From positions 1 through 64,000 of IMG/VR virus record IMGVR_UViG_3300035565_000044: a stretch of DNA of 64,000 bases; one strand, written 5' to 3'. The notes under the pieces are model-generated. The model worked only from the letters and a program-made list of their open reading frames with translations, ran no database searches and was not told the origin of the DNA. This document shows, piece by piece, positions 30,870 through 49,055 of this stretch (within the stretch, counting starts at the first letter, position 1; the number at the start of each line of letters is the position of its first letter). Origin of the DNA: a virus. A program made the translations under genes and the position numbers.

Positions 30870-30954
30870 CGGTGCGTTGAGATGTGTAACGATATGTAAC
30901 GATATGTAACGATACGCCACGTTACGCCACGTTACGCCACGAGGCGAAACGATA
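30870..30954 (-). repeat. CGY-NN pentamer array 1 (17 units)
   Basis: NN on minus strand: AT TT CT GG AA GG AA GG AT TA AT TA AT TA AT AA AC. Confidence 0.9.
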
Positions 30955-30993
30955 TCTGGTGAAAGACGGAGCCAATGCCGAGCAAGCGATCCG

Positions 30994-31245
30994 TCAAGGA
31001 TTTTTATCAGCTCCGTCCTTCTGCTGATTAACGTATCCAGCTTCTTTGATCATGTCAAGCGTCTCTATTATCCCTGTGATAAACATTCCTATGCATATAC
31101 CGCTTGTGAAGCCAAATGATCCCCATATGAAGTCAAAGTACATACTTGCAATCGCAAGAATTGACATGATAGACATGGTTACGATGGCCAGTCTCCATGC
31201 TGGTTCAGTCTTGAGAAGGATAAAGAATATCTTTGTTCTTGTCAT
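30994..31245 (-). CDS. Small protein with two transmembrane segments
   Basis: 83 aa with two hydrophobic stretches. Confidence 0.55.
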   Translation of the reverse strand: MTRTKIFFILLKTEPAWRLAIVTMSIMSILAIASMYFDFIWGSFGFTSGICIGMFITGIIETLDMIKEAGYVNQQKDGADKNP

Positions 31246-31248
31246 CTT

Positions 31249-31264
31249 AGTTCCACGTGAAACG
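31249..31264. promoter_or_regulatory. parS-like palindrome 4 (at the 3' end of array 2)
   Basis: AGTTCCACGTGAAACG. Confidence 0.7.
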
Positions 31265-31327
31265 TTGCGTTGCGAGACGGCGCAGGGCGCTGCGGCATGT
31301 TACGTCGCGAGATGTTGCGACGCGAGA
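31263..31327 (-). repeat. CGY-NN pentamer array 2 (13 units)
   Basis: NN: CT GT AA CT GA AA GC AG CC GC CT AA AA. Confidence 0.9.
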
Positions 31328-31535
31328 AACAATATTCACTGGTGTGCTGTTACGCCAAAGAGGGCACGGGTTTATCCTAGGCAAATCGCGGACCACACGA
31401 AGCACCGTTGGCCTCCCCTCACTCTTTAAAGGTATAGTGGAGTCCATCCCACTTGGCTGCTTCTAGGCCAACCTCCCAGTGAAATTAAGCCCTTAACGTG
31501 AGTTGTGCGCGTGAAGCGTAGCTTCGCTACTCCCG

Positions 31536-31841
31536 TTAAGCGGCTTCCGAGTTGTGGGCAGCTTGGAAACCAGCCATCCCACCAATTTCAATCCAATTTT
31601 CAAACGACTTTCTGTCTCCACAACACACAGCGGGAACGAAATTGTTTATAAATTCGGCAATGTCGTAAAGGCGGCGGCGGCTGGCGAAATCAGCATGCTC
31701 CAGAGCGCCTAACAAATTATTACTAAAAAACGCTTCAAGAAAACATCCTGGGTTAACCCCTTCATCAACATAACGCGTCAGGGGATGGCGTAAATGCGCC
31801 GGAACAAAGTCCCATACAGCCCTAGACTTCCAATCGTCCAT
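31536..31841 (-). CDS. Phage hypothetical protein
   Basis: RYV..G..PG.FL.A..SNNL..A...AD motif; RBS AGGAG. Confidence 0.7.
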   Translation of the reverse strand: MDDWKSRAVWDFVPAHLRHPLTRYVDEGVNPGCFLEAFFSNNLLGALEHADFASRRRLYDIAEFINNFVPAVCCGDRKSFENWIEIGGMAGFQAAHNSEAA

Positions 31842-32129
31842 GTTTCTCTCCTGAAAAAAAATTCCCGGTTAGCCGATAGGGAAAAGCCAACCGGGAGAAG
31901 TTGATAGAGGGAACGCAGCCCATCCCCTTTGGTTTGGACGTACAAGGGACGGGCGTGGGATTAATATAGACCCTTATGAAAAACACGCAAGGGGTAATCG
32001 TTCGATACGGACGACATTTTAGAATGAGGCAAAAATATCACAGAACCGTGGCCAAACGCCAACGGATGGGTTGACCATCCGCTACGAATAGGCTACATCC
32101 ATTCTCGTAGTAACCGAAAAGGGGAAATT

Positions 32130-33092
32130 ATGAAGTTCGGATATAAGGTTCTGGCTATGGTCGCGCTCTCTGCGACTCCTGCCATGGCGGCTGATCTCGG
32201 TAATTCTGGCGGATATAAGGACTCGGTTGAAACCGTAGCGCCTGGAGTGTCCGCAAGCTGGACTGGCTTCTACATCATGGGTGGACTGGGGCGCAGCTCC
32301 ACGTCGCATGATGTGAAGGGCCAGGAAGACTTGGCTACGGCGAAGGCGCTGACTGACGTTTATGTTCATTTCGATGGTGAGGGAAAGCGTACCTACAATA
32401 GCACTGCATGCGCAGTCAATGAAGATTGCTATAGGGCTTATAAGCAGGGCGATACTCTTCACCATAATAAAACTGGCCATGATCTTGTGGACAGCAATTC
32501 TAGCCTTGCTGGTTACACTGTAGACGCCACAAACTTTTTCTCCACTGATGGCACCGCTAGCGGGTTTGTAGGCTCTTTGGGCGTTGGCTACGATAAGCAG
32601 ATTGGCTCCATGCTGCTTGGCGTCATGGCTGACTACCAATTCCGCACCAACAAGACCACAATCGGCGGAGTTAGCGTTAAAGAATCTGACGCTATCTTCC
32701 TCGGCGCCCGTGCTGGTTTCCTTCCAACCCACAACATGCTTGTCTATGTGCTGGGTGGATACACATGGTTGAACCATTCTGGAGTTGTTAATTCTCTTCA
32801 GAGTGCTGACACCAACTATGGTGATGCCGGATACACAGCGAAATATGGCGATGGCAGCTTCGGCGGATTTACCCTTGGCGGAGGTGCTGAAATCCCCGTG
32901 GCTCGGAACTGGTTCCTTGGCGTTGAAGGCCGTCATACTTGGTACGGAAAAGAAGACCTCGTGTCCTCTACCTATACCTACACGTCTCCAACGGCCTACC
33001 ACCAGGACAAGTACCACGTTACCGACGAGCCTACCGAATGGTACGTCGGCGCCACCCTCAAGCTGAAAATGGGCGGCGACAGCTTCAAGTAA
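32130..33092 (+). CDS. Outer-membrane beta-barrel protein, Omp25/Omp31/RopB-like
   Basis: Signal peptide ..PAMA|ADL; SWTGFY.GG.G, GYD.Q.G, RAG...LVY..GG and GFTLGGGAE motifs. Confidence 0.85.
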   Translation: MKFGYKVLAMVALSATPAMAADLGNSGGYKDSVETVAPGVSASWTGFYIMGGLGRSSTSHDVKGQEDLATAKALTDVYVHFDGEGKRTYNSTACAVNEDCYRAYKQGDTLHHNKTGHDLVDSNSSLAGYTVDATNFFSTDGTASGFVGSLGVGYDKQIGSMLLGVMADYQFRTNKTTIGGVSVKESDAIFLGARAGFLPTHNMLVYVLGGYTWLNHSGVVNSLQSADTNYGDAGYTAKYGDGSFGGFTLGGGAEIPVARNWFLGVEGRHTWYGKEDLVSSTYTYTSPTAYHQDKYHVTDEPTEWYVGATLKLKMGGDSFK

Positions 33093-33123
33093 CTTGCACG
33101 ACGACCCGACTCGCGTGTAATGT

Positions 33124-33170
33124 GAGCGCTCTTCTGAGAGGCCCCCCCTTTCAGAGGAGCGTTTTCTTTT
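33124..33170 (+). terminator. Intrinsic terminator after the OMP gene
   Basis: GAGCGCTCTTCTGA..TCAGAGGAGCGTTT followed by a T tract. Confidence 0.7.
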
Positions 33171-33225
33171 TAACGCTCCGTGGCGTATCATAGCACCCCG
33201 CCCCGTTCCACAACGCAACGTAACG
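33171..33225 (+). repeat. CGY-NN pentamer array 3 (11 units)
   Basis: NN: AA TC GG AT AG CC CC TC AA AA AA. Confidence 0.9.
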
Positions 33226-33232
33226 AGATATC

Positions 33233-33550
33233 ATGACTGTTATTGGAATACAGATGCTGGAGCCAACAGCAGAAGGTAAAAAGAACCTAAGCAATAGAGA
33301 CGTTGAATTTCTTAATCATGTAGCCCAAGAGATTGTTTTTGCTCGTGGGAAATTTCCAGGAACGAAGCATATGGTTGCCGTACTCTTGGAAGAGGTAGGA
33401 GAGCTGGCCAAGGCGCTCCTGGACTATGAGAACGACATTGCCCCTAAGGACGAGATTTGGCTGGAGGCGGTTCAATCCAGCGCCATGGCCATGAGATTGG
33501 CTACAGAGGGCGTTGACGGCATGCGGTACTCCAGATACAGTAACGAATGA
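33233..33550 (+). CDS. MazG-like NTP pyrophosphohydrolase
   Basis: LLEEVGELAKALL..E..Q motif. Confidence 0.75.
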   Translation: MTVIGIQMLEPTAEGKKNLSNRDVEFLNHVAQEIVFARGKFPGTKHMVAVLLEEVGELAKALLDYENDIAPKDEIWLEAVQSSAMAMRLATEGVDGMRYSRYSNE

Positions 33551-33610
33551 TTTCTCCCCGCTCCGTATCGTAGCGTATCGTACCGCAACATACCTTGACG
33601 TAACGCATCC
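33551..33610 (+). repeat. CGY-NN pentamer array 4 (about 12 units)
   Basis: NN: TT CC TC AT AG AT AC AA AC GA AA AT; begins immediately after the MazG stop codon. Confidence 0.9.
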
Positions 33611-33629
33611 GAATCAGATACTTTCGTAG

Positions 33630-33658
33630 AAAGGCCCTCCACCTTGGGGGGCTTTTTT
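33630..33658 (+). terminator. Intrinsic terminator downstream of array 4
   Basis: AAGGCCCTCCA-CCT-TGGGGGGCTTTTTT. Confidence 0.7.
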
Positions 33659-33672
33659 GCTATGGGGATGAT

Positions 33673-34041
33673 ATGCTGAAAGAACGTGCGCTCAAGAGGT
33701 TAAAGAAGAATCTAGGGAACACATATGGCTACAGAAACGCAGCGTTGGCTAAAGAGCCGACGCCAGCGGAAAAGGTCATAGAAACCAAAAAAGAGGAGAC
33801 TGGTCTAACCATTTTAGACCTAGGCTCCAAGCAATGTAAATGGCCTACAGGCTACAACGAGTTCGGAGAAATTACTTTCTGTGGCAAGAAGAGACACCAA
33901 AGAGAGGACACTGGTGCGAAAAGTCCGTATTGCGCTTCACACCATCGGCTTGGACTCGACAAATATAGACCAAGACGAGGAAACGGAGGCGGCGGAGACG
34001 CCAAAGGCGATAGTGTACGCTCAACTGGCAAGGGCGGTTGA
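33673..34041 (+). CDS. gcrA: GcrA-like cell-cycle regulator (C-terminal Cys/His domain)
   Basis: LTILDL..QCKWP.G..FCG..SPYC..H motif of GcrA. Confidence 0.8.
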   Translation: MLKERALKRLKKNLGNTYGYRNAALAKEPTPAEKVIETKKEETGLTILDLGSKQCKWPTGYNEFGEITFCGKKRHQREDTGAKSPYCASHHRLGLDKYRPRRGNGGGGDAKGDSVRSTGKGG

Positions 34042-34342
34042 CGAGTACGTCTGCGACATGATCATGGTCAAGTCTAAGGCTGGCCATGGGCTTCCTGCCA
34101 TTGCTGAATATCTTGGCCTTGAGCAGGATACCATATTGCATATGGGGAGCACCAAAGTAGAGGGCAGCTACCAGGGAAAGGCTGGAGCCAAGCTATCTGA
34201 CAGAGAGCGATTAGAAAGAAATAGGATTATTATAGACCTTTATGAAAAAGGTTTTCGACAGGTAGACATAATTAGGAAAATGAATATTTCCGCCCCTGTC
34301 GTCAACACCATTATATCAAAGCACCTTGGTAAGAATAAATGA
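33881..34342 (+). CDS. HTH protein; start uncertain, overlaps gcrA
   Basis: RN.IIIDLYEKGFRQVDIIRKMNIS..VV..II HTH pattern. Confidence 0.55.
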   Translation: MARRDTKERTLVRKVRIALHTIGLDSTNIDQDEETEAAETPKAIVYAQLARAVDEYVCDMIMVKSKAGHGLPAIAEYLGLEQDTILHMGSTKVEGSYQGKAGAKLSDRERLERNRIIIDLYEKGFRQVDIIRKMNISAPVVNTIISKHLGKNK

Positions 34343-34371
34343 TCAACAGCGTCGTCAGAAATGGCGGCGCT

Positions 34372-34387
34372 TTTTTCACGTGAAACA
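34372..34387. promoter_or_regulatory. parS-like palindrome 5
   Basis: TTTTTCACGTGAAACA. Confidence 0.65.
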
Positions 34388-34656
34388 CAAAAGCAAACGG
34401 CCCAGAGCCGTTCCAAGCTCTGAGCCGCCTACCTCAAGAAAGGAGATTACCAATGTCAGTGTAGAGAAGGTACACTTAAGACACATCGCGCCCTTAGCGC
34501 AATTGAGGCTCATGGAAATGCAACCCAATCACAACGCTATCTCTGCCGTCCTTCATATTAAGGATGACATTAACCATTCACCCTGATAATCTATATTTAT
34601 AATTTAAACATGGATATCAGGACTCATGATGCCTAGTGTTGTACCACTAAGCGGCC

Positions 34657-34938
34657 ATGGAGTCAACCCCCTGGAGGTTTACCATGCCGCTTGAGAGCCT
34701 ACCCAAAATGGTGATGAAAGCAGTACATGAGGCAGATAACGATCCTGACGCACAGGCGGCTATCGTGGAGGTCCAAGCGCGTATGCTGGGTATGTCCATA
34801 GCCCTCATGACAAATGGCGACGCCAGGGCCGCCAATGAGCTTCTAGAGGGCGCTTCTCAGTACGCTATAGAGCAGGCTGCATCAACACAGCAGATCGACA
34901 GAATGTTGAACATAGCCCTTAAAAAGATCGGTCACTGA
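34657..34938 (+). CDS. Hypothetical protein; start possibly 34684
   Basis: Helical ORF; GGAGG precedes the second ATG. Confidence 0.55.
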   Translation: MESTPWRFTMPLESLPKMVMKAVHEADNDPDAQAAIVEVQARMLGMSIALMTNGDARAANELLEGASQYAIEQAASTQQIDRMLNIALKKIGH

Positions 34939-35413
34939 GGCCAGGGAGCTGGCGCCAGAGACTTTCTCTAATAGGAATTAGCTCTGCGCCAACTTCACTG
35001 AACATCCTGTCTGCATGAACGCAGTTCTCATGCCACCTGTCTGAGAAACTACTTCTAACGATGAAGGGAAATACCACCCTCCGAATTCCACGTTGGATGA
35101 GCATAGCTGCGCACCCAGCGCACACGGGACACCAGGGTGCTGGCACGGCCACGTGTATGGTGCAACCGTGTAGCCGCTCTGTAGCGTAGGCCATGGCGTT
35201 TGCTTCTGCATGGATAATTCTCGGGTATTTAAGTGATCGATCATTAAATATCTCTGGAGAATCGTCACAGCCGCTAGGGAAACCATTTACGCCCATGCTG
35301 ACTATGCTATGGTCCGGCCTTGAAATAACGGCTCCGACCTTTGTTGATGGGTCTTTACTCAGGCGCCCAGCGATGTAGAAGGCGAGGCCGAGATATTCTA
35401 AGTCCCAATTCAT
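34919..35413 (-). CDS. dCMP deaminase
   Basis: SKDPSTKVGAVI, G.NGFP.G, HAEANA and C..C motifs. Confidence 0.9.
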   Translation of the reverse strand: MNWDLEYLGLAFYIAGRLSKDPSTKVGAVISRPDHSIVSMGVNGFPSGCDDSPEIFNDRSLKYPRIIHAEANAMAYATERLHGCTIHVAVPAPWCPVCAGCAAMLIQRGIRRVVFPFIVRSSFSDRWHENCVHADRMFSEVGAELIPIRESLWRQLPGLSDRSF

Positions 35414-35506
35414 ATTGGTTCCATAAAAATATCCCCCCAGCCAGGAAGGGTGACTGAGGGGATAAGTCAATCTGGGGAGATTATGCGATATCCGTGAGGA
35501 ATATCC

Positions 35507-35731
35507 GTGAGGACAGATTTATCTGAACTCTATCCTGCTGTCAAAGAGAAAATCATCCGTGTCAGATGGAAAAAAATGATAGCGGGCGCGGTATGGCAAA
35601 AACAGGGGAACCGCTGGCGTTGCGTTTTTAGCCCTCATGAACTAAGGTGGATGGCGAAGAGCACCCCAGAGCAAGCCAGGAGACGCCTGGAGGCCATGGG
35701 AGCTAAGTGGGAATGGTTAGAGCAGGATTGA
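35507..35731 (+). CDS. Hypothetical protein
   Basis: RBS GAGGA; the AVW.K.G..W.C..L.WM pattern recurs in 36163-36408, suggesting paralogues. Confidence 0.55.
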   Translation: MRTDLSELYPAVKEKIIRVRWKKMIAGAVWQKQGNRWRCVFSPHELRWMAKSTPEQARRRLEAMGAKWEWLEQD

Positions 35732-35927
35732 GATATGGGACGCCACAGGCCGAAAGACAGAAAGCATAAGGGCAGCAGCGAAACGCGGTATGAAGGCGAC
35801 CCGCGCGCTGTGCGTATTTATTTTGAAGATAGATCGAAGTACAAGGGCGCTATGATCTTGGCCGTGCGCCACAAAAATGGCGTAGGGCGTCCGCCAATGG
35901 TAAATATAAATGCGCGTGGTAAGTAAG

Positions 35928-36176
35928 ATGGCATGGAATTATAGGGTAATGGAGTTCCCTGGAGACGAAGGTCATACTCTCTTGGGAATTCACGAAGTTT
36001 ATTATAACGAAGCTGGGGAGCCTAGGGCGTATTCTAAAGAACCAGTTCCAGTTGTGTGGGAAGGGTCAAATACCCCAGACGACATGAATGGCGGCAATGA
36101 TATCATCAATACGATGCTTGAGGCCATCAATAAGCCTATTCTAAAACCTTCAGACTTCCCTGATGGAAGTTACTGA
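35928..36176 (+). CDS. Phage hypothetical protein
   Basis: WNYRVM..GIHEVYY..G.P motif. Confidence 0.7.
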   Translation: MAWNYRVMEFPGDEGHTLLGIHEVYYNEAGEPRAYSKEPVPVVWEGSNTPDDMNGGNDIINTMLEAINKPILKPSDFPDGSY

Positions 36177-36408
36177 GAAATATCTCTGGGTGGACACCGG
36201 CCATTATGCGGCCGTGTCCATCTGGGAGAAACGGGGCAAAGACGGAGAATGGGTTTGCACCTACGCCGAGCCCCTTATTGGTTGGATGAAGGGTACGCCA
36301 GGGCTCAAGGTGCGCGACCGTCTTGATGCTGCTGGGACGTTCTATGTGTGGTGTGATCCAACGGATCGGGGAATTGCTCTGGGAAGAGCTTTTCGAGCTG
36401 GCGGATAA
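36163..36408 (+). CDS. Hypothetical protein (probable paralogue of 35507-35731)
   Basis: IWEK.G..WVC..IGWM pattern. Confidence 0.5.
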   Translation: MEVTEKYLWVDTGHYAAVSIWEKRGKDGEWVCTYAEPLIGWMKGTPGLKVRDRLDAAGTFYVWCDPTDRGIALGRAFRAGG

Positions 36409-36627
36409 GGCCAAGCATCTCGTAGAAGTAGTTGTCTTCAGCAAACTCACCTATGAAACATTCACACGGATCACGCTTGCAGGTACAAACATGTTTCTCC
36501 ATGACAATTTCTCCAATTTAATGGTTCTGGTGCTATTTATTATGTTGGCCATATTCGTTCTGGCTATCATGGCGCCAGTATAGGAACCATGAGCGAGCTC
36601 CTAGGAAGTATGGGAACCATCATCAGC

Positions 36628-36900
36628 CTACGCGCCTCCCGTTTCAAACGGGATGCTGGAACCAAATAAGATATCAAGCTCTGCAACGCCATATCTCTTC
36701 TCCTGAATTGTCAGCCCATTCCACCCTCTTACCCACCGCCTTGGGTTTCCGCATCCTAGACAACTGCATATCTGCAAGTTATCTGCGGACCTTTGCACGC
36801 GCCACAGCAGGTTAGTGGGTTTAGACGTAGAGTTTTGCTTTATTATCCGTTCAGCTTTTCTGCGCATACGCTGTTTGTGGTGGCGCCTCAGGGCTCTCAT
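36628..36900 (-). CDS. Phage hypothetical protein
   Basis: CSC..CGNPRR..LTIQE motif. Confidence 0.65.
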   Translation of the reverse strand: MRALRRHHKQRMRRKAERIIKQNSTSKPTNLLWRVQRSADNLQICSCLGCGNPRRWVRGWNGLTIQEKRYGVAELDILFGSSIPFETGGA

Positions 36901-37234
36901 TGATCCATTCCGTCATAACGTTGGTTGTCATGACGCGCCTCCCAGATCCTATTTTGAAGTAGGCGGGGGTTTCCACATTACGCCTTCCCCATAACTTTGG
37001 TACAATAATAATTTCATAACCCACCCATCCCTCGCGTTGAGCCGTTTGTAGGGCTAGGTGTACATTGGCGATAGAGAGGTGATGACCGTACATCCTCTCA
37101 AGCTCCCGTAATATGACCATAGACCGTTTTGAGCTAGTGTAGCTAAGGACGGATGGGAGGCTGTTGATGATATCATCTTGGTTAGGTCCACTGGAGACGG
37201 CCTTTATCATCCCTACTGCATCTTTCCAGCTCAT
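36851..37234 (-). CDS. Hypothetical protein
   Basis: TAATG coupling to the vWA gene. Confidence 0.5.
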   Translation of the reverse strand: MSWKDAVGMIKAVSSGPNQDDIINSLPSVLSYTSSKRSMVILRELERMYGHHLSIANVHLALQTAQREGWVGYEIIIVPKLWGRRNVETPAYFKIGSGRRVMTTNVMTEWINESPEAPPQTAYAQKS

Positions 37235-38262: not shown

Positions 38263-38323
38263 GCTATTTCCTTTCTAGCAAAGACGCCGCCCAGAGCGGG
38301 GGCTCACTGGACGGCGTCAACTT

Positions 38324-38764: not shown

Positions 38765-38781
38765 TCGTTTCTCCTGATGTT

Positions 38782-38858: not shown

Positions 38859-38934
38859 TGGTAGCGGGAGCCAGATTCGAACTGACGACCTCCTGGTTAT
38901 GAGCCAGACGGGCTTACCTCTGCCCTATCCCGCA
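38859..38934 (-). tRNA. tRNA-Met(CAT), initiator-like (1:72 mismatch)
   Basis: Cloverleaf; anticodon loop CTCATAA; T loop TTCGAAT; encoded ACCA; U1xU72. Confidence 0.9.
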
Positions 38935-38938
38935 TTAT

Positions 38939-39025
38939 TGGTCACGGACTGCGGACTTGAACCGAAGACTTCCACCTAATAGATTGCTCTAGGGCGGTGG
39001 CGTTCTACCATTAAACTACCCGCAA
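38939..39025 (-). tRNA. Atypical tRNA-like gene with a 19-nt anticodon loop containing a hairpin
   Basis: D arm GTTT-AATGGTA-GAAC; anticodon stem CCACC/GGTGG; T loop TTCAAGT; 3' CCA. Confidence 0.7.
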
Positions 39026-39028
39026 CAA

Positions 39029-39100
39029 TGGCGCTCCTACACAGGATCGAACTGTGATTTTCAGGATTGAAAGCCTTATCCCTCACCAGAGGATAGGAGC
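39029..39100 (-). tRNA. tRNA-Glu(TTC)-like, with a shortened D loop and irregular anticodon arm
   Basis: Perfect acceptor stem GCTCCTA/TAGGAGC + GCCA; T arm CACAG-TTCGATC-CTGTG; loop CTTTCAA(T). Confidence 0.75.
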
Positions 39101-39110
39101 ATATACTACT

Positions 39111-39170
39111 CGTTACGTCACGTCAAGTTACGGGGCAAAGCGTCAAGACACGATACGATGCATCATGGAA
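39111..39170 (-). repeat. CGY-NN pentamer array 5 (about 12 units)
   Basis: NN: TC GA AT AT GT GA TT CC AA GA GA AA; ends 10 nt before the 5' end of tRNA-Glu. Confidence 0.9.
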
Positions 39171-40875: not shown

Positions 40876-40943
40876 GGATCACTTTCTCCTCTTGTCTATC
40901 CGAACCGGATGCTTTCGTCAACCACTAATTTGCAGAAAATTCG

Positions 40944-40959
40944 TTAATAATTAGTTAAC
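40944..40959. promoter_or_regulatory. CtrA-type box upstream of the AAA+ ATPase
   Basis: TTAA-TAATTAG-TTAAC (TTAA-N7-TTAAC). Confidence 0.5.
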
Positions 40960-41304
40960 ATGAGCCATTGGCGGCGGAGCTAACCAGAACCCTGTTTCCT
41001 CCATAAAATTGTCCCGCTGCTCAAGCGTCGCATGACAACGGACCAGGACAGCGCACTGTTTATATCTAGCATCAAATGCGTAAACTCTGCTGATGCCCAT
41101 CCTATGGCGCAAGGCGGCCTCGAAAAACGTTCCTAGGCTTGCCTTAGACAGATTGAGAGACCTATGCGGCCTCCCGTCTCTGGGGTATTCTCCAGCGTCC
41201 CAAGGGAATTGGCCATAGACGTTTGGATTGTATTTGTTTCCAATCTCTATGGCTCTTTCGATTTCGGCGCTGAATTTCTTATTTAAAGTTTCTTGAATGG
41301 ACAT
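40951..41304 (-). CDS. Hypothetical protein
   Basis: 117 aa, co-oriented with neighbours. Confidence 0.6.
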   Translation of the reverse strand: MSIQETLNKKFSAEIERAIEIGNKYNPNVYGQFPWDAGEYPRDGRPHRSLNLSKASLGTFFEAALRHRMGISRVYAFDARYKQCAVLVRCHATLEQRDNFMEETGFWLAPPPMAHVN

Positions 41305-41308
41305 AAGA

Positions 41309-41363
41309 CGTTGCGTTATGTTGTGATGCGAGACGTAACGGCGAGTTACGATACGACGTGGTG
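41309..41363 (-). repeat. CGY-NN pentamer array 6 (11 units)
   Basis: NN: AC GT AT AA GC TA CT AT AA AA AA; fills almost the whole intergenic gap. Confidence 0.9.
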
Positions 41364-41642: not shown

Positions 41643-41802
41643 TGAGATATTCCTCAAGGATAACAATACCTTTACGTAGAGAAGCGGCGGCTACGTCTGT
41701 TTTGCAGCCGTTGAATGTAGAACCACGCCCACACTGAGATAGCATGGTGGCTAATTTTCTAATTTTGGTTAAATCTTCTTGAGAGAAGTGGCTTTGCGGC
41801 AT
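41572..41802 (-). CDS. Hypothetical protein
   Basis: Start trimmed to the ATG downstream of array 7 and its parS site. Confidence 0.45.
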   Translation of the reverse strand: MPQSHFSQEDLTKIRKLATMLSQCGRGSTFNGCKTDVAAASLRKGIVILEEYLNDEDERGIHPDNDPGHVQATTPE

Positions 41803-41803
41803 T

Positions 41804-41819
41804 TGTTCCACGTGAAAAT
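41804..41819. promoter_or_regulatory. parS-like palindrome 7 (at the 3' end of array 7)
   Basis: TGTTCCACGTGAAAAT. Confidence 0.65.
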
Positions 41820-41820
41820 A

Positions 41821-41880
41821 CGTTGCGTTATGATGCGGAGAGATACGATGCGCCACGTGACGTCAAGTTGCGCTGCGTCA
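41821..41880 (-). repeat. CGY-NN pentamer array 7 (12 units)
   Basis: NN: GA AG AA GA CA GG AT AT TC AT AA AA. Confidence 0.9.
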
Positions 41881-41887
41881 TCCGATT

Positions 41888-41916
41888 CAGATAGTCCACC
41901 TAGCGGGAGGAGTCAA
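41888..41916 (-). promoter_or_regulatory. Leftward sigma70-like promoter initiating at array 7
   Basis: TTGACT-N17-TATCTG; predicted start site about 41881. Confidence 0.6.
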
Positions 41917-41974
41917 CCCTCAAAAATTGTCCACACCCCCTTTCAAAAAAAGTCCAACATGTTACGTTTTCGTA

Positions 41975-42003
41975 TTGACTTCCAACCGGGCGCGTTGTAA
42001 AAT
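41975..42003 (+). promoter_or_regulatory. Rightward sigma70-like promoter for the replication genes
   Basis: TTGACT-N17-TAAAAT with an upstream A tract. Confidence 0.7.
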
Positions 42004-42481
42004 TTTTACTATGCTGCTATTGGCAGGCCCAGACAGAGATAACTCCCTAAAATCGAAGAATATCGCAACCAGATAGGTGAAAACCTTCCTGGTTTTCCGT
42101 GTTTATCACTCATTTGGTTAAAAATCGATGCCAGGACAGAATGTATGGATTGCTTCCATTTTTTCTGAAGCAAACGGCCATGCGCAGAATCATCTAGACT
42201 TCGGCGCCGCGAATCGTTTAAGGTCCGGAAACGAACAAAGGCCGGTGCTCCCTGAGAAAGAGCAACCGGCCTTCAAAAAGCATAAATCTGAACAGTGCCC
42301 CTCGCAAGAGCAATTCAGAAAGGAACTTTAGAAACCAAGCTTGGGCTATCTAGCTTCAGCTAAAGGCGGCTTTTGCCGTTCCAGGCGCCAACTTTACTTC
42401 TGGCGTCAACCAATGTCCGCTCCGAACGCGTCAGGTCGCCTTGACGTGTAACGGACCTATGCGCTCCAGTCAAGGAAAAAT

Positions 42482-43843
42482 ATGACAAACTTTAAAAATA
42501 GCGTTGCCGTCGCCCCTCTCGCCAACCATGAGCTGGAGAAGGCGCTGCTCAGCTCCATACTTAACACCCCTGATATATTTGATAAAATTGGGGACTCTAT
42601 CCTCCCTGAATTCTTTAGCTCCCCCCTCCACCGGGCTCTGTACACGCGCCTGTCTGCGTTCCTTATGCGGGGAGAGCGGGTCAATCCACTCTTGCTGACT
42701 AAAGATATGAATGATGAAAGTAAGAAAGAGGTAAAGGAAATATCTGATTACCACTCAGATGGTTCTCTTGCCGAAAGTAACCTGGAAGCCCTTCGGGAGC
42801 TATGGCAAAGGCGCGAGCTCCAGAGAATGTGCGATGAGGGAGCGGCGCTTGCTTCTACGGACATGGCACCTGAAGCGTTGATCAACAAGCTTGAGGAGAA
42901 ATTATATAAAATAGCTATTCCCGTGGAAAGCGAAATGGTTTCTTCTGCTCAAGCTTATAAAGAGCTTATGGATGAAATTAAGGCGCGTGTTGATAAGGCT
43001 AATGAGACTTTTCCCCGCACTCCCATTCTCCCAGGTCTAAGAAGTGGCTTCGAACAGCTAGATGACATGTTAGGTGGCCTCCAAGAAGGACACTGTATAC
43101 TTCTTGGAGCTCGTCCGTCTATGGGAAAAACGGCCTTATTAGGGAACATATCCCATAACGTAGCTGCTGCTGGAGACCCTGTTGGATTTATAACCTATGA
43201 AATGACTGTTGAGCAGTTACTCTTACGGGCGGCGGCGTCTGAGGCAAGTGTTAGCTCAGACGCACTCAACCGTGGAGACCTCAGCGATCCACAACTTATC
43301 AAGTTCCAAGAAGATTCTGGTTGCTTGGCGCATCTCCCCATACACTACGTATACAACCCAGGTAACATTGACAAGCTACTGACAGTCATGAGGAAGCTTG
43401 TTAGAGTTAAGAAATGCAAGCTTATCATCATAGATTACGTTAATCTTATACCTGGAGGTATAGGAAGAGATGCTACAGAGAAGCTTGGAAACATCTCTGC
43501 TTCTCTGAAAATGGCGGCTGGACGCCTTGGAATTCCAATTATCATAGCTTGTCAGCTCAATAGAAACCTAGAGTCTAGAGACGACCAAAGACCACAGCTC
43601 TCTGATCTAAAGCAGTCTGGTAATCTAGAACAGGATGCTGACGCTGTTATTTTTCTTCACAGAGAAATATACTTTGTTGAGCGTAGGCGCCCAGATGTTT
43701 CTGATCCAAAATTTTCAGCTTGGCAGGCTGATTGCAACAGATGGCGTGGAAGGGCTGAGATCCTTCTTAGAAAAAACCGCCATGGCCGTATAGGAGAATC
43801 CGAAATAAACTTTAACGAGTCCACCACCAAATTCTCTAATTGA
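42482..43843 (+). CDS. dnaB: Replicative DNA helicase DnaB
   Basis: GARPSMGKT, YEM, IIIDYV, QLNR..E.R...RP.LSDLKQSG.LEQDAD and KNRHG motifs. Confidence 0.95.
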   Translation: MTNFKNSVAVAPLANHELEKALLSSILNTPDIFDKIGDSILPEFFSSPLHRALYTRLSAFLMRGERVNPLLLTKDMNDESKKEVKEISDYHSDGSLAESNLEALRELWQRRELQRMCDEGAALASTDMAPEALINKLEEKLYKIAIPVESEMVSSAQAYKELMDEIKARVDKANETFPRTPILPGLRSGFEQLDDMLGGLQEGHCILLGARPSMGKTALLGNISHNVAAAGDPVGFITYEMTVEQLLLRAAASEASVSSDALNRGDLSDPQLIKFQEDSGCLAHLPIHYVYNPGNIDKLLTVMRKLVRVKKCKLIIIDYVNLIPGGIGRDATEKLGNISASLKMAAGRLGIPIIIACQLNRNLESRDDQRPQLSDLKQSGNLEQDADAVIFLHREIYFVERRRPDVSDPKFSAWQADCNRWRGRAEILLRKNRHGRIGESEINFNESTTKFSN

Positions 43844-43909
43844 GAAAAATAAGAGAAAAATAAGAAGAACATAAGAATTGATCTTCTTTCTCACACAGTT
43901 TAAAATAAA

Positions 43910-43938
43910 AAAAGGAGGCTGTAAGCAAGCCTCCTTTT
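43910..43938. terminator. Bidirectional terminator-like hairpin
   Basis: AAAAGGAGGCT-GTAAGCA-AGCCTCCTTTT. Confidence 0.6.
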
Positions 43939-43976
43939 AATAAAGAATAGAAACCCTAACCCATAAGGGACTTCCT

Positions 43977-45329
43977 ATGGCCGATTCTACTGCACAAAAA
44001 AATAATGTCAATAAGTTTTTGCCAGAGTACGAATCACAGAGTGTTTTCCGCTCAGACGGGGCTGACTACGCATACACACTGGTATCTAACAGACTGCTCC
44101 AAGACTCTGGCATTGATTGGGAAACCAGGGGAATGATTGCGGACCTGCTGAGCAGGCCAAAGGACTGGGATATTAGCGTTATGGGGCTGGTGGCTATGGC
44201 CAATGGCCTAACTAAGAAAGCAAAAATTTATAGGATGATAAACGCCGCTATGGCGAGTGGGTACATCCGACGCTTTACCAAGCGTGGCGCCGATGGACGT
44301 GTGGCTGGATATACGTATGTCGTATCAGACAACCCTTCTCGCCTTGCACTGCTTTCCGATTTTCAGGAAACTGCTAAGCAGGAAGCTGAAAAACAGCCAC
44401 AACAAAGTAAAGATCTTAAAAAAGTAAAAACAGAAAAAAAATACACAGCGCCAACATCGCATTTCCCACATTTTGAAGAGGACATGGAAACAAAAACTCC
44501 CCCCATCCCCCAAGGGGGGAGTGGTCATTCCTGCGTCATGACCGTTCGTGAAAACGCCGAGCCTACAAGCCAACCATCCCAACCAACGTGGGAGGACGAG
44601 GAAGGGTTTGTTAACCATATTAAGATAGACGACTCCGCTACTCATTCCACTTCAATGGTATCCAGCCTTGAGGAAACGCCAGAAGCGGTGAAAGCTGAAA
44701 CCCTGGTCCTGACGCCCCCAGAGCCAGAAGCGCCGTCTGTGACGCGTAAGAAGGCCAAGAAAGCGCCTTCTACGAAGCTGGACCACAATACCGACCCTGA
44801 GTTTGGAAAATTCTGGGATAAATACCCAAATAAGAAAGGAAAGGCTGGCTCTTACGCCCATTGGAAGAGATTTTGTAAGGATAAACCGGAGCTGGCTTCT
44901 CTTTTGCCACAGGCCGCTATGGAATACGAGAGCGATCTTCGTAGGCAGTACAAGAGCGCTTCTGAGGCTAAGCAGCGCACCTGCTGTGGATATAATTGGT
45001 TCAACAAAGGTCTCCATGAGTACTATGTTGATGTTATAATTGAGAGAAGTAAGCCACAGCCTGTGGAAAATTCAGAAAGCCAATTAGAGCAACGTGCACG
45101 CGAAGAACGCGAGAGAGTCGCTAGGGTAGCTGAAGCATGTTCTGAAACTAAGCGGGCTAGGTTCGTTGAATTCTTGTCAAAGGTGTACTCCAACGTTAAA
45201 GACGCATGGAACGAAAAGGTTATTGAATATTTCCATGCCCGTAAGTACTGGGATATCGACGCCCTTATCCCAGTTGATGTGAAGAATGAAGCCAGGGCTG
45301 CTATCGGAGCTCCACTTCTGGCTTGTTAG
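43977..45329 (+). CDS. Phage replication initiator (winged-helix N-terminus)
   Basis: YTLVSN.LLQD..I.W..RG....LLSRP.DW..GYI.R; C-terminal F..FW..YP.K.GK. Confidence 0.75.
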   Translation: MADSTAQKNNVNKFLPEYESQSVFRSDGADYAYTLVSNRLLQDSGIDWETRGMIADLLSRPKDWDISVMGLVAMANGLTKKAKIYRMINAAMASGYIRRFTKRGADGRVAGYTYVVSDNPSRLALLSDFQETAKQEAEKQPQQSKDLKKVKTEKKYTAPTSHFPHFEEDMETKTPPIPQGGSGHSCVMTVRENAEPTSQPSQPTWEDEEGFVNHIKIDDSATHSTSMVSSLEETPEAVKAETLVLTPPEPEAPSVTRKKAKKAPSTKLDHNTDPEFGKFWDKYPNKKGKAGSYAHWKRFCKDKPELASLLPQAAMEYESDLRRQYKSASEAKQRTCCGYNWFNKGLHEYYVDVIIERSKPQPVENSESQLEQRAREERERVARVAEACSETKRARFVEFLSKVYSNVKDAWNEKVIEYFHARKYWDIDALIPVDVKNEARAAIGAPLLAC

Positions 45330-45344
45330 AAAGGAAAGATTACC

Positions 45345-46253
45345 ATGTCCGAAAGGTTTACCGACGCCGCCCGCTCCAGGGGCTTGCTTATACAAACTCC
45401 CATTGCTGATGGGACTGTTCACCGAGTACGCACTTCTGACAAACCCCACTCCCGAAATGGCGCCTACGTGCTCTTTACCAACGGCCGGGGATGGTTCGAA
45501 AACCACGCTGACGGCATGGGGCGTCAGGAATACGCTCCAGAGTCTAAGGGCGGGCTCACAGCGGCCGAAAGGTATGAGGCTAGGATTAGGGTAGCCGAAG
45601 AGAGAAAGCGGTTCCAGGAGGCTCGCACAGAGGAATACAGAGCGGCTGCGCTGGAGGCCAAGGATCTCTTTGGCAGAGGGCTTATGGTCAAGGCGCATGG
45701 CTATCTGAGCGCTAAAGGCGTCCTCCCTCACGGACTGCGCGTTTTGGACGGCGCATTGCTTGTCCCAGTTCGAGACGCGAATGGGAACTGGCAGAGCTTG
45801 CAAAGGATTTTTTTAAATGGTTCAAAAACCTTTCTAAAGGGCGGGAGACTTGAAGGGGGGATGTTTGTCATTGGCAACATATACCCTGAAGGGGCGGCGC
45901 TGGTTGCCGAGGGTTACAGTACTGGGGCGACTATCTATGAGGCGACGGGTTGCGCTACGATTGTGGCGTTCAACTGTGGAAACCTTACAAAGGTGGCTAG
46001 GTCCCTTAGGAAGAGATATCCTAAGTTGAAAATAATCATTTGCGCTGACGATGACCGGAACACGCGTGGAAACCCAGGACTGACAAGCGCGAGCGAAGCG
46101 GCTAGGGCGGTGGGTGGTTATCTGGCCAAACCAAATGTTAAAAAAGGTAGCGACTTCAACGATATGTGTGCTGAACTAGGCATGCAAGAGGTTAGGCGCG
46201 CGCTTATGGCGGTAGTGAAAGGTTGCATGGCAGAGCCGGATCGTGGTAAGTAG
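45345..46253 (+). CDS. TOPRIM-domain primase (TraC-like)
   Basis: H.YL..KGV, LLVP, SLQRI, AEGYSTG, VAFN.GNL, ICADDD and DFND motifs. Confidence 0.9.
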   Translation: MSERFTDAARSRGLLIQTPIADGTVHRVRTSDKPHSRNGAYVLFTNGRGWFENHADGMGRQEYAPESKGGLTAAERYEARIRVAEERKRFQEARTEEYRAAALEAKDLFGRGLMVKAHGYLSAKGVLPHGLRVLDGALLVPVRDANGNWQSLQRIFLNGSKTFLKGGRLEGGMFVIGNIYPEGAALVAEGYSTGATIYEATGCATIVAFNCGNLTKVARSLRKRYPKLKIIICADDDRNTRGNPGLTSASEAARAVGGYLAKPNVKKGSDFNDMCAELGMQEVRRALMAVVKGCMAEPDRGK

Positions 46254-46259
46254 GAGCAT

Positions 46260-46319
46260 TAACGTTTCGCCTCGTAACGCATCATAACACGCCTCTCCTC
46301 TTCGCACCATAACGTAACG
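46260..46319 (+). repeat. CGY-NN pentamer array 8 (12 units)
   Basis: NN: AA TT CT AA AT AA GC TC TT AC AA AA. Confidence 0.9.
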
Positions 46320-46333
46320 TTTCATGTGAAACA
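46318..46333. promoter_or_regulatory. parS-like palindrome 8 (at the 3' end of array 8)
   Basis: CGTTTCATGTGAAACA. Confidence 0.65.
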
Positions 46334-46397
46334 ATGCGCTACCTTGACAAAATCGTTGAGATAGCGCATTGTGCTTTTGTATGCAAAATTGAAAGGG

Positions 46398-46757
46398 ATG
46401 AATATGTCTGAAGGGAATCAGTACAACTCTGGCGCCCGACCACGGGCTAACAGACTTTTACTCGGAAAGTTATACGAAAAGACTAGTCAGAGTGGACAAA
46501 AGTATTTTCAAGGCGTTCTTGGATTTCTAAAAGTCCTTGTTTTTCATGATGATAACGCGGAAGCGGGCAACGAATGGAATTTTTTCGTTGTAGAACGTGA
46601 TCCTTCAGAAACTAAGCCTCGTCAGATTAGTGGTCCACCTCAGCACCAGCCCAACGCTGTAGGCCAAGGCGGCGGATATGGCGCTCAGACGGCCCCCCGC
46701 CCCATACGCCAGCCGCGACAGTTGCCTCCAGAAGGTGGGAGCAATGACCCTTTCTAA
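46398..46757 (+). CDS. Putative ssDNA-binding protein
   Basis: Small beta domain, Pro/Gln/Gly linker and C-terminal DPF, an SSB-like tail. Confidence 0.55.
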   Translation: MNMSEGNQYNSGARPRANRLLLGKLYEKTSQSGQKYFQGVLGFLKVLVFHDDNAEAGNEWNFFVVERDPSETKPRQISGPPQHQPNAVGQGGGYGAQTAPRPIRQPRQLPPEGGSNDPF

Positions 46758-47298
46758 GCCTCCTAGAGGGTTCCTGACGCCTAGATGGGCGACAGAGGCT
46801 TTACTGTCCCATGTCGAACATTTGGTCAATGGCCTGGAGCCTGCGGCTGGTCAGGGGGGAATATCGAGAGTCTTGAAAGAAAGTGGTAAAAAAGTCGAAT
46901 CTTTTGATATTTACGAGCACAAGGACGATGGAATAACGGTTAACCGGCGTAACTTCCTCAGTCAGCATTGGGACGTTAAATATTCAAACTTTCGAATGAA
47001 ACTGAAAGCTTCGGATGGCGGGATTATCTGCCATCCACCCCAGCATCTATTCAAACAGTTTATCAAGAAAGCATTGACGCTAACCGAGCACCACGGGACA
47101 GTGGCGTTCTGGCTTAGTCATTCAATTGACACAGAGCTCTGCTACCAGGAGTTCTTCCATGGAAGCGACGCATTTTATAAAAAGATCGTTCCAATTCAAA
47201 GACTAAGACTATCGGATGATACTCTGGAGCCAATGGCGTGGTATATCTGGAGACATGGATATGGGGGAGTTCCGACTCTTCATTATGAAATAATTTAG
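46744..47298 (+). CDS. DNA methyltransferase-like protein with a degenerate catalytic motif
   Basis: TP.WAT.ALL and LEPAAG.G.I (motif I); IICHPPQ in place of IxNPPY. Confidence 0.65.
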   Translation: MTLSKPPRGFLTPRWATEALLSHVEHLVNGLEPAAGQGGISRVLKESGKKVESFDIYEHKDDGITVNRRNFLSQHWDVKYSNFRMKLKASDGGIICHPPQHLFKQFIKKALTLTEHHGTVAFWLSHSIDTELCYQEFFHGSDAFYKKIVPIQRLRLSDDTLEPMAWYIWRHGYGGVPTLHYEII

Positions 47299-47444
47299 GT
47301 GAGTAATGGGGCGTATGAGGAATAGAGCGGTTGATGGAGTGCGCCGCCATAGGCGTAAATTTTCAATTGACCGTGAGAAGGCTATTGAAAGCACTATAGA
47401 GGAAATGATATCCATCATGAATAGACTGATTATTTTAGTAAGAA

Positions 47445-48095
47445 GTGATGAGGATGGACTTGACTCTAATGAGGCAAATAGAGGAAACGGCAGTAGAGAT
47501 ATCAATGGAGCCACGGTGGCAAGACGCTACGGCCGAAAGGATAATGAAAGCCAAGAAGGCTGAACGGCAGGTCCATGAAAATATAGTATATGGTACAAAC
47601 GGTTTTCCTACTGGTGAGAATCGTAGAGAAATTTATTCTGCTTTGGACACTCTTTACAGGCGTAACCCACCGATGATCTTAAAAGAAGAGTGGGAAGCTG
47701 GTTGCCATTTCTTATTTATATATAGAAAATCAGAACAGCATACAAGAACTACAATGAAATGGGTAGCTCAAGTGGATGGAGGCGTTTATGCGCCAGACCC
47801 GCTAGAGTTTAAAGAGTTCTCAATTAAAGAACTCTATTCAGCTAGCAAGTCAGTCCATCCCCAGGGGCGTACAGCCCTTACATGGCTTATAGAAAACGAA
47901 TGGCATGATATGAGCCTCGTTGACCTTGGAAGCCAATACCCTGGACCACAGGGAAGGGACGCCCAAAGAGAACGAGGCCGAGTCTATCTGCGGCTGGCGC
48001 TTAACGATTTAGGGAAGTACTTCGGATTTATTTCCCCCAATAACGCTTGGGATACCAGGAGGTTTCTGGAGCAATTATTGGGGAAGAGGCGTTAG
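47445..48095 (+). CDS. Putative transcription regulator (DUF6456-like)
   Basis: EAG..F, T.KW, and a C-terminal LRLAL..L..YFG helix. Confidence 0.55.
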   Translation: MMRMDLTLMRQIEETAVEISMEPRWQDATAERIMKAKKAERQVHENIVYGTNGFPTGENRREIYSALDTLYRRNPPMILKEEWEAGCHFLFIYRKSEQHTRTTMKWVAQVDGGVYAPDPLEFKEFSIKELYSASKSVHPQGRTALTWLIENEWHDMSLVDLGSQYPGPQGRDAQRERGRVYLRLALNDLGKYFGFISPNNAWDTRRFLEQLLGKRR

Positions 48096-48457
48096 CGGTT
48101 CTTGTTCCTATTATATATGGTTTCTAGCGCAGTTATAGATTCGCTAGATAAGGCTTCTTTGAAAATCTCAATAAGCTTTTCATTGTTAGGAGTTTCCTTT
48201 TCGGTAGGGGCTGAGTCCCTGAGCGACACAGCCACCTTTGCCACCACGCCCCCAGCATAGTAGCACAGAGCGCAAATAACTTCGTTGTAGTCGCTCCCCC
48301 TTCTCTCCTCAGAATCAAGCCACCTAAGGGCAGACTCTAGCATGTGTTTACGGGCGCGTCCTACGAGCGCGACCTGTTCGCTATCGCTGAGGCTATCTTG
48401 GTGGGCTGACTCCACCGCCGCAACGATCATTTCATCAAGCTGCTTTTCAATGTCCAT
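48092..48457 (-). CDS. Hypothetical protein
   Basis: RBS GAGGAG before MDIEKQ. Confidence 0.6.
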   Translation of the reverse strand: MDIEKQLDEMIVAAVESAHQDSLSDSEQVALVGRARKHMLESALRWLDSEERRGSDYNEVICALCYYAGGVVAKVAVSLRDSAPTEKETPNNEKLIEIFKEALSSESITALETIYNRNKNR

Positions 48458-48512
48458 ATTTTTCTCCTCTAACCCCTTGTATCCGTTACGGACGTTCGTT
48501 GCAAATGAGAAA

Positions 48513-48528
48513 AGTTTCACGTGGAGCA
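48513..48528. promoter_or_regulatory. parS-like palindrome 9
   Basis: AGTTTCACGTGGAGCA. Confidence 0.55.
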
Positions 48529-48537
48529 TTTTCCTCG

Positions 48538-48566
48538 TTGACATGGGGTTAATTAGGGCTTAATTA
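48538..48566 (+). promoter_or_regulatory. Promoter of the Y-RNA cluster with an embedded CtrA-type box
   Basis: TTGACA-N17-TAATTA; TTAA-TTAGGGC-TTAA at 48549-48563. Confidence 0.6.
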
Positions 48567-48576
48567 TCTCTTCACA

Positions 48577-48642
48577 GCCGGTGGCTAGGAAGTCGATTAC
48601 AACGTCTTGTGAACGCTAACATCGCCTCCGCTTTCCCCCGGC
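48577..48642 (+). ncRNA. Y-RNA-like gene 1 (minimal)
   Basis: Closing stem GCCGG/CCGGC; shared GTGGCTAG..CGATTAC..ATCG..CGCTTTCCC scaffold; upstream of the Ro60 gene. Confidence 0.75.
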
Positions 48643-48652
48643 GTCTGAATTT

Positions 48653-48790
48653 TTGTGTCGTGGCTAGGGATACGATTACATCTTCTATAGACAAGAAGAC
48701 TTGCTTGGTTCGATTCCGAGCTCCCCCACCATCTACGGGGGAGTGTCCAGGGTGGACAGTCGTTATCGTCCCCGCTTTTTCCCGACGCAA
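48653..48790 (+). ncRNA. Y-RNA-like gene 2 (YrlA-like, permuted tRNA domain)
   Basis: Same scaffold; T arm CTTGG-TTCGATT-CCGAG, acceptor-like stem CTCCCCC/GGGGGAG, D-like arm. Confidence 0.85.
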
Positions 48791-48797
48791 CTTAATT

Positions 48798-48937
48798 CAG
48801 TGGAGTGGCTAGATTTCCGATTACAACGATAGCTCAGTTGGTAGAGCAACAGACTTCATATCTGTAAGTCGTAGGTTCAAACCCTACTCGTTATCCCGTA
48901 AGGGGTAATCCATCGTAAATCGTTTTTCCCTCCACTG
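48798..48937 (+). ncRNA. Y-RNA-like gene 3 with an embedded canonical-order cloverleaf (anticodon TCA)
   Basis: Closing stem CAGTGGAG/CTCCACTG; same scaffold; cloverleaf at 48823-48894. Confidence 0.85.
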
Positions 48938-48946
48938 CTTTAAACA

Positions 48947-48984
48947 GGCGCCGGTTCCTTCGCAAGAGGGGATCGGCGTTTTTT
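48947..48984 (+). terminator. Intrinsic terminator after the Y RNAs
   Basis: GGCGCCGGTTCCTTC-GCAA-GAGGGGATCGGCGTT followed by a T tract. Confidence 0.75.
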
Positions 48985-49000
48985 GTTTGTAATGCGTAAT

Positions 49001-49055
49001 TTACGTCTCGCTTCATAGCGTGTCGTGACGTGCCGCAACTCACCGTAACGTAACG
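49001..49055 (+). repeat. CGY-NN pentamer array 9 (11 units)
   Basis: NN: TA CT TT AG GT GA GC AA AC AA AA; directly upstream of the Ro60 RBS. Confidence 0.9.

Follow-up and report, generated by a model that had tools for sequence, protein, structure and literature searches.

VIPR, a CRISPR-related RNA-guided silencer of DNA, was first described in 2026 (bioRxiv 10.64898/2026.04.26.720920). It consists of a Cas7-like protein of ~20 kDa, Vipr, and of guide RNAs called vrRNAs, which are built from 9-16 GGY/NN pentamers (bioRxiv 10.64898/2026.04.26.720920, 10.64898/2026.04.26.720927). In the structure, each pentamer unit carries one Vipr protomer and its GGY triplet is concealed (bioRxiv 10.64898/2026.04.26.720927, PDB 36PP). 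The NN dinucleotides read double-stranded DNA, and every third target base is skipped (bioRxiv 10.64898/2026.04.26.720920, 10.64898/2026.04.26.720927). Here we describe arrays of pentamers with CGY as the fixed triplet in a phage genome, the first 64,000 nucleotides of which (IMG/VR record IMGVR_UViG_3300035565_000044; hereafter the window) were analysed. We argue that these arrays probably encode the vrRNAs of the phage's own VIPR system.

The wobble position is where the skipped base mostly falls in natural VIPR targets (bioRxiv 10.64898/2026.04.26.720920, 10.64898/2026.04.26.720927), and this 2+1 wobble-skipping code is published and experimentally established for VIPR (bioRxiv 10.64898/2026.04.26.720920, 10.64898/2026.04.26.720927, 10.64898/2026.10.15.759431). 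The VIPR authors argue that synonymous escape is blocked, and a later paper shows it for a satellite recombinase (bioRxiv 10.64898/2026.10.15.759431). The pentamer grammar is common to all seven published VIPR types, self-targets are absent in the published systems, and the one-base skip has its origin in a thumb-bundle module that Vipr shares with Class 1 Cas7. A pseudoknot tail of ~40 nt at the 3′ end has been described for the SUSP1 clade only, and the published targets were found through host-restricted searches.

A genomic language model has yielded non-canonical VIPR arrays of the kinds GAC/NN, CAC/NN, WGT/NN and TGH/NN, as stated in the available part of that preprint (bioRxiv 10.64898/2026.10.21.760802). 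Solo vrRNAs are found in satellites and in vipr-null phages (bioRxiv 10.64898/2026.10.15.759431), and published work describes how satellites and rival phages hijack a phage's Vipr using solo vrRNAs of their own.

Pentamer Arrays and Their Probable Protein Partner

The phage genome is complete (100,522 bp, 48% G+C, with direct terminal repeats), and the window is its first 64 kb. Arrays were detected by a scan for CG at five-base spacing, followed by our own parse into units. Nine strong arrays (A1 to A9, 106 units) lie in the window between 30.87 and 49.06 kb, and a tenth (A10) lies outside it at 77.1 kb. Each consists of 9-17 units of the form 5′-C-G-Y-N-N, a size that agrees with the 9-16 units of the published vrRNAs. 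The arrays have a polarity, as in one reading direction a pyrimidine always follows CG. Across the 117 units of all ten arrays position 1 is C in 115, position 3 is always a pyrimidine, and position 2 is G in 85 units, A in 20 and T in 12 (73%, 17%, and 10%); CAY, CTY, and TGC occur as variants of the fixed triplet. Nearly all arrays close with two or three AA units and then CG (..CATAA CGCAA CGT.., an AA-CGYAA-CG motif).

Folded as RNA, the arrays show no structure beyond that of shuffled sequence (z-scores -1.0 to +1.4). An Rfam scan of the window returned tRNAs only, and no CRISPR array was found by tandem-repeat and Rfam scans of the window. The phage does not appear to target itself. No site in its own genome matches at least 80% of the NN positions of an array, and the best sites, at 65-77%, are in the range of unit-shuffled controls.

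The likely protein partner of the arrays is encoded in the same window by a gene that we designate vipr, whose product is a Cas7-like RAMP of 200 aa. A phmmer search matched it to SUSP1 Vipr (PDB 36PP_D, E = 0.006) across the G-loop region, and its AlphaFold2 model (pLDDT 95) had Cas7/Csm3/Cmr4 RAMPs as the top Foldseek matches, with probability 1.0. It is assigned to phrog_4652 and has 684 homologues of ~185-200 aa. The loop GxGRFRP...GGxYGRF is invariant in the family. Proteins 68-83% identical to it exist in the database; close relatives of the phage as a whole were found neither in the phage collection nor in IMG/VR. This sole RAMP gene stands alone, and the combination that marks CRISPR-Cas, a repeat-spacer array with cas1/cas2, was not found with it.

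Directly behind vipr lies a candidate vap gene, for whose product Pfam, PHROG, and PDB returned nothing. Of 80 related viral loci, 31 have a homologue of it (tblastn) in the same place, immediately behind vipr and on its strand. These 80 vipr loci, taken from IMG/VR (L121-L200), were also compared for their arrays. The relatives carry arrays of this grammar around their vipr homologue and on its strand, six of them in L121 and eight in L151. The arrays of relatives share the end CGCAA CGCAA CG, in loci of the triplet types CGC, CTC, and mixed GGC/CGC. Because of the Vipr homologue, the partner gene, and these same-grammar arrays beside vipr in relatives, we consider it likely that the arrays of the phage are vrRNA genes.

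How would such a system work? We infer Vipr binding of the CGY units, the one-base skip, and the silencing of DNA from the published systems. As in SUSP1, a Vipr protomer would bind each unit, hide its C-G-Y triplet, and present the two variable bases. The concatenated NN would pair with double-stranded target DNA in an NN-x pattern, with one target base skipped per unit, and this pairing would silence transcription of a competing mobile element. In coding targets the skipped base would usually be the wobble base, and synonymous mutations would have no effect on targeting.

Reading Register and Composition of the Variable Dinucleotides

If the guides read coding DNA with the wobble base skipped, their NN strings should resemble codon positions 1 and 2. 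Such a 2+1 reading had been proposed by a first-pass annotation of this DNA from the bias of the dinucleotides. We evaluated it with dinucleotide frequencies from the genes of the phage and of loci of similar G+C, in three registers on both strands. The wobble-skipping register gave the best fit to the NN strings, with a margin over the next register of 3.7 nats for the variable units and 5.1 nats for all units (the strand being unknown for each array). For strings drawn from actual genes in the wobble-skipping register the margin was 4.7 ± 3.4 nats. Real-gene strings from the other two registers attained the observed margin in 1.3% and 0% of trials, and letter-shuffled arrays in none of 500. 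Among the guides of related CGC-type loci the wobble-skipping frame was best in 39 of 62 (27 antisense, 12 sense).

The 2+1 proposal is therefore right in kind and partly supported: it matches the published VIPR rule, a Vipr is present, and composition favours it by 3.7-5.1 nats. This support is indirect, the codon reading does not explain the missing TG, CG, and CA, and the rule had already been published, hence it is not new here.

The composition itself is biased. Among the 106 window units the commonest dinucleotides are AA (28), AT (16), CT (8), TT (8), and GA (7), whereas CA occurs once and TG and CG never. The earlier counts thus stand for TG, CG, and CA and for the dominance of AA and AT, although TT ties with CT and the number of units is 106 rather than about 111. 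The degenerate peptides previously read from A5 and A2 are reproduced exactly, on condition that the parse takes in one or two upstream units of less canonical form. It had also been cautioned that the excess of AA partly reflects the constant 3′ end, and this is so: 14 of the 33 AA in the ten-array parse (28 in the window) fall in the last three, near-constant units. The NN differ from the dinucleotides of the genome with chi-square p = 2e-11 for all units and p = 0.006 without the constant 3′ units.

Most of the absence of TG and CG follows from single-position base use, because G is rare at the second N (9-13%). A shortfall is left beyond this effect. Given the marginal frequencies, 6.5-8.2 units with CG, TG, or CA are expected in the window and one is seen (Poisson p = 0.003-0.011; p = 0.027 with the tenth array), and pyrimidine-purine steps overall make up 5 of the 106 window units. 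Codon positions 1 and 2 predict 11.7% for the sum of CA, CG, and TG, and 2 of 87 units were observed (P = 0.0015); codon usage is therefore no explanation of the missing TG, CG, and CA. The fallback explanation in the first-pass annotation, that CG avoidance protects the repeat register, does not hold as a general rule either, since the 62 related CGC-type guides (802 units) use these dinucleotides freely (CG 50, TG 30, CA 37). The bias is probably a mixture of the codon content of targets, A-rich at the first position and G-poor at the second, with a pyrimidine-purine depletion particular to this phage, and the latter is explained neither by codon usage nor by general register protection.

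Evidence Against the Assignment and Rival Explanations

Several results weigh against the assignment of the arrays to VIPR. No sequence is common to the 50 nt downstream of the arrays beyond the closing CG, so that the structured 3′ tail is absent. The pseudoknot is described for the SUSP1 clade only, and its lack therefore counts against membership in type II and not against VIPR. The residues D177 and W178, by which SUSP1 Vipr reads G1 and G2, are R and F in the window protein and throughout its clade, and therefore details of recognition must differ from SUSP1. The deficit of CA, CG, and TG relative to codons, given above, limits the support for the codon reading.

In the DNA searched, no credible natural target of the arrays was found. 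Against 205 viral loci (~3.5 Mb) no match of the phage's arrays rose above unit-shuffled controls. The best-match distributions of these arrays in the searched viral DNA and in the phage's own genome are indistinguishable for skips of 0, 1, and 2 bases, and the same three skips were no different when 179 related guides were compared all against all with 200 loci. Read as degenerate peptides and compared with the Vipr proteins of relatives, the guides gave no match above shuffled controls.

Exact scans with the NNx patterns were run on public collections. A7 had no match in these collections, and A2 none in viral or metagenome contigs. A5 matched one open reading frame (ORF) of a phage with 36% G+C, represented by two contigs, and three unrelated bacterial genes, all in the wobble-skipping register. 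The phage ORF lies at 7687-7968 (-) of locus L208 (IMG/VR contig 3300019760_000018; the same sequence occurs in L201) and is matched perfectly by 11 consecutive units in the sense direction with the wobble base skipped. It codes for 93 aa, is rich in lysine and glutamate, and has a C2H2-like zinc-finger end. No other potential target emerged, and chance could account for this one. Neither contig holds a second guide match, and no two guides converge on one element. A8 had two matches, antisense and wobble-aligned. The single match of A4 skips codon position 1 of a 752-codon ORF, and that of A1, at the end of a bacterial mutarotase gene, skips position 2. Of 8 independent exact matches, 6 fall within an open frame in such a way that the wobble base is skipped. 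The match numbers are about those of chance for such collections by our own estimate from codon frequencies, and the six matches show that the strings are codon-like and not that these are real targets.

Could the arrays be VIPR guides whose NN bias comes from constraints on the RNA itself? Such guides would be kept A-rich, G-poor, and unstructured, with C-G, T-G, and C-A avoided as mimics of a unit that shift the register. The arrays are indeed without excess structure, CAY and TGC do occur as fixed-triplet variants, and CG, TG, and CA together fall below both the codon prediction and the single-position frequencies (p = 0.003-0.03). Yet CT is common among the NN even though the fixed triplet also has a CTY variant, the related CGC-type guides show no such avoidance, and not one of 500 letter shuffles reaches the wobble-register preference, so position-specific, codon-like information is present. 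We regard this explanation as unlikely. A different pairing geometry in the CGY clade, with another skip length or with RNA as the target and with the codon-like composition as a coincidence, is very unlikely. The changed guanine-reading residues of the G-loop, the different 3′ end, and the equivalence of skips 0, 1, and 2 in the searched DNA would all permit it. It has to contend with a pentamer grammar found in all seven published types, with a one-base skip that comes from the shared thumb-bundle module, with the mostly canonical GGC of close Vipr relatives (37 of 80 loci), and with a composition that favours a target period of three bases with the wobble skipped.

The positions of the arrays suggest one more alternative. 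They may act chiefly in cis, as 5′ leaders coated by Vipr or by a TRAP-like ring that control translation or termination, and the NN would then be mere spacers. A start codon follows six of the ten arrays at a distance of 1-17 nt, A4 lies just upstream of an intrinsic terminator, and all are co-oriented with the gene that follows. In a compact phage genome, though, any intergenic element is near a start codon. The tandem runs of up to eight arrays beside vipr in relatives fit guides and not gene-specific leaders, the NN differ greatly from array to array against a constant triplet and 3′ end, and the NN carry a codon-register signal. We hold this alternative to be highly improbable. TRAP-like leader control as the main explanation was dropped on the grounds of the Vipr homologue and of the tandem arrays in relatives.

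Triplet Variation Among Related Loci

The fixed triplet differs among loci of one Vipr clade. Of the 80 related loci, 37 have mainly GGC, 15 CGC, 9 CAC, 3 GTC, 3 CTC, and 2 GAC. Whether triplet position 1 holds G or C is correlated with the Vipr residues 116, 117, 178, and 19 (numbering of the window protein), a relation confounded by shared ancestry. V116, P117, and N178 are present in 31 of 31 G-type proteins, whereas C-type proteins have varied residues or G178. The replacement of D177 by R was considered as the cause of the change from G1 to C1 and rejected, as this R is invariant in relatives with GGC, CGC, or CTC arrays. Nor is the switch explained by the F that replaces W178, which is likewise constant in the clade.

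A tentative and rather doubtful idea is that the triplet has switched repeatedly within one Vipr clade (proteins 43-51% identical), perhaps in an arms race that deafens Vipr to foreign guides such as the solo vrRNAs with which satellites and rival phages hijack it. If this were true, nature would supply mutually orthogonal VIPR scaffolds together with a readable code of protein-RNA specificity. The related loci form a natural series of triplet switches with covarying residues, which could guide experiments on scaffold reading and orthogonality.

Surroundings of the Arrays

The coordinates of the arrays and of the features around them are given in Table 1.

Table 1. Pentamer arrays, VIPR genes, and neighbouring features of the phage genome.
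Feature	Position	Strand	Description
A1	30867-30951	-	17 units; 58 nt upstream of ERF recombinase gene (30029-30808, -)
A2	31260-31324	-	13 units; promoter-like TTGGCG-N16-AATATT immediately upstream (by eye); ends 14 nt before ATG (31245) of 83-aa membrane-like ORF
A3	33174-33223	+	10 units; directly after intrinsic terminator 33124-33164; ends 9 nt before ATG of ORF 33233-33550
A4	33554-33608	+	11 units; after stop codon of ORF 33233-33550, within the end of which lies promoter-like TTGACG-N17-TACAGT (33513-33541); terminator 33635-33650 downstream
A5	39113-39157	-	9 units and two less canonical ones to 39167; starts after terminator 39216-39176
A6	41306-41360	-	11 units; directly after stop codon of upstream minus-strand ORF; ends 1 nt before ATG (41304) of ORF 40951-41304
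A7	41818-41877	-	12 units; own promoter TTGACT-N17-TATCTG; ends 15 nt before ATG at 41802
A8	46263-46322	+	12 units; 9 nt past stop codon of primase gene 45345-46253; next sizeable gene ~80 nt downstream
A9	49004-49058	+	11 units; ~20 nt after terminator 48946-48981; ends 17 nt before ATG of Ro60/TROVE gene
A10	77121-77175	+	outside the window, same phage genome
vipr	52135-52737	+	200-aa Cas7-like RAMP, likely partner of the arrays
Candidate vap	52747-53277	+	176 aa; 9 nt after vipr
GcrA-like cell-cycle regulator	33673-34041	+	Pfam PF07750, E = 1e-11; downstream of A4
tRNA-Met gene and weak tRNA-like match	38859-39100	-	weak match at 39032-39100 (Rfam 34 bits); directly downstream of A5
tRNA-like gene	48823-48897		UCA anticodon; ahead of A9 and Ro60/TROVE gene
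Ro60/TROVE-vWA gene	49076-50482	+	~48% identity to proteins of Brevundimonas, Caulobacter, and Xanthomonas phages
Copies of ATCYG-NN-TCRGAT	33607-33619, 35555-35567, 40898-40910, 41880-41892, 54771-54783		palindromic motif

None of the arrays is adjacent to vipr. They lie 3-21 kb upstream of it and in one case about 24 kb downstream, a spread of ~46 kb. All ten have the orientation of the downstream gene, and the six that end just before a start codon precede co-oriented ORFs of at least 76 aa. At the 5′ side, three arrays come right after an intrinsic terminator and two right after a stop codon, and in four a promoter-like site is closely upstream, two of these sites having been read by eye. 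As a weaker possibility, the guides 1-17 nt before start codons may also let Vipr loading throttle the translation of the phage's own early genes. At A6, no recognisable ribosome-binding site lies between the last unit and the ATG of the ORF behind it; either the true start of this ORF is further downstream, or its translation relies on the A6 region. Because tRNA-like genes lie directly downstream on its strand, A5 may share a transcript with tRNA-like RNAs and be cut free by the enzymes that process tRNA.

A1 has an unusual internal structure. Its NN string is TT CT GG AA GG AA GG AT TA AT TA AT TA AT AA AC TT, and it contains duplications in 10-nt steps, (CGTGG CGTAA)x3 and (CGTTA CATAT)x3. 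These repeats may have grown by slippage or may be aimed at a repetitive target. The string is of low complexity and gives an odd peptide in every frame. The first two units of A1, CGTTT CGCCT, are identical to those of A8.

The palindromic motif ATCYG-NN-TCRGAT is enriched, with 13 strand-matches where 3.4 were expected, and none of 100 shuffles reached 13. A GANTC site is present in two copies, both of which abut arrays: the palindrome ATCCGAATCAGAT at the 3′ edge of A4 and the palindrome ATCTGAATCGGAT at the 5′ edge of A7, where it overlaps the -10 box TATCTG. A similar ATCCGTATCGGAT lies ahead of A10. The motif may serve as an operator, as a 5′ hairpin, or as a promoter element of GcrA/CcrM type, the last being considered because the phage encodes a GcrA-like protein. 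The gene for this protein is also the chief pointer to an alphaproteobacterial host.

Comparison with Known Systems

The Cas7 backbone of Class 1 CRISPR systems has in common with this locus the RAMP fold and, presumably, a protein filament on guide RNA with periodic base flipping. In contrast, Class 1 CRISPR works with a six-base period and contiguous pairing of 5 nt, and it has CRISPR repeats, several cas genes, and spacer acquisition; the locus shows none of these.

TRAP, the trp attenuation protein of Bacillus, binds (G/U)AG triplets spaced by 2-3 nt in leaders. TRAP-type leaders resemble our arrays in that their triplets recur with a five-base period in RNA, beside start codons or terminators. 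However, no TRAP-like gene was found here, the candidate for triplet binding is a RAMP, and the relatives have long tandem runs of arrays.

The non-canonical arrays found by the language model are likewise of period 5 with a triplet other than GGY and go with a Vipr-like fold; in the available text of that preprint CGY is not named and the arrays considered lie beside the protein gene, a position that no array has here (bioRxiv 10.64898/2026.10.21.760802). Solo vrRNAs are, as here, single vrRNA genes away from vipr (bioRxiv 10.64898/2026.10.15.759431). Unlike the carriers of solo vrRNAs, this phage retains its own vipr and a candidate vap, and its guides match no vipr genes of relatives.

The closest counterpart is type II VIPR of Escherichia phage SUSP1, made up of Vipr, vap1, and vrRNAs. 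Both comprise a phage-encoded, lone Cas7-like protein of ~200 aa followed by a small accessory gene, and guides of 9-17 pentamers in which three bases are fixed, the third of them a pyrimidine, and two vary, with no self-targets. The NN composition of our arrays fits a register with the wobble base skipped, as in SUSP1. The differences concern the triplet (GGY in SUSP1, CGY with CAY and CTY variants here), the residues D177/W178 (R/F here), the 3′ end (a pseudoknot tail of ~40 nt in SUSP1, the constant AA-CGYAA-CG end here), and the arrangement of the guides, which are clustered beside vipr in SUSP1 and here scattered, often with a terminator or stop codon before them and a start codon after them. 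Array finders keyed to GGY, to the 40-nt tail, or to proximity to vipr would miss all ten arrays. Because codon-reading guides that disregard the wobble base were published in 2026, the central idea is not new. To the described systems the locus adds a complete, terminally redundant 100.5-kb phage genome with VIPR, as we read it, on a CGY scaffold, with guides that have no structured tail and ten guide genes spread across the early and replication region.

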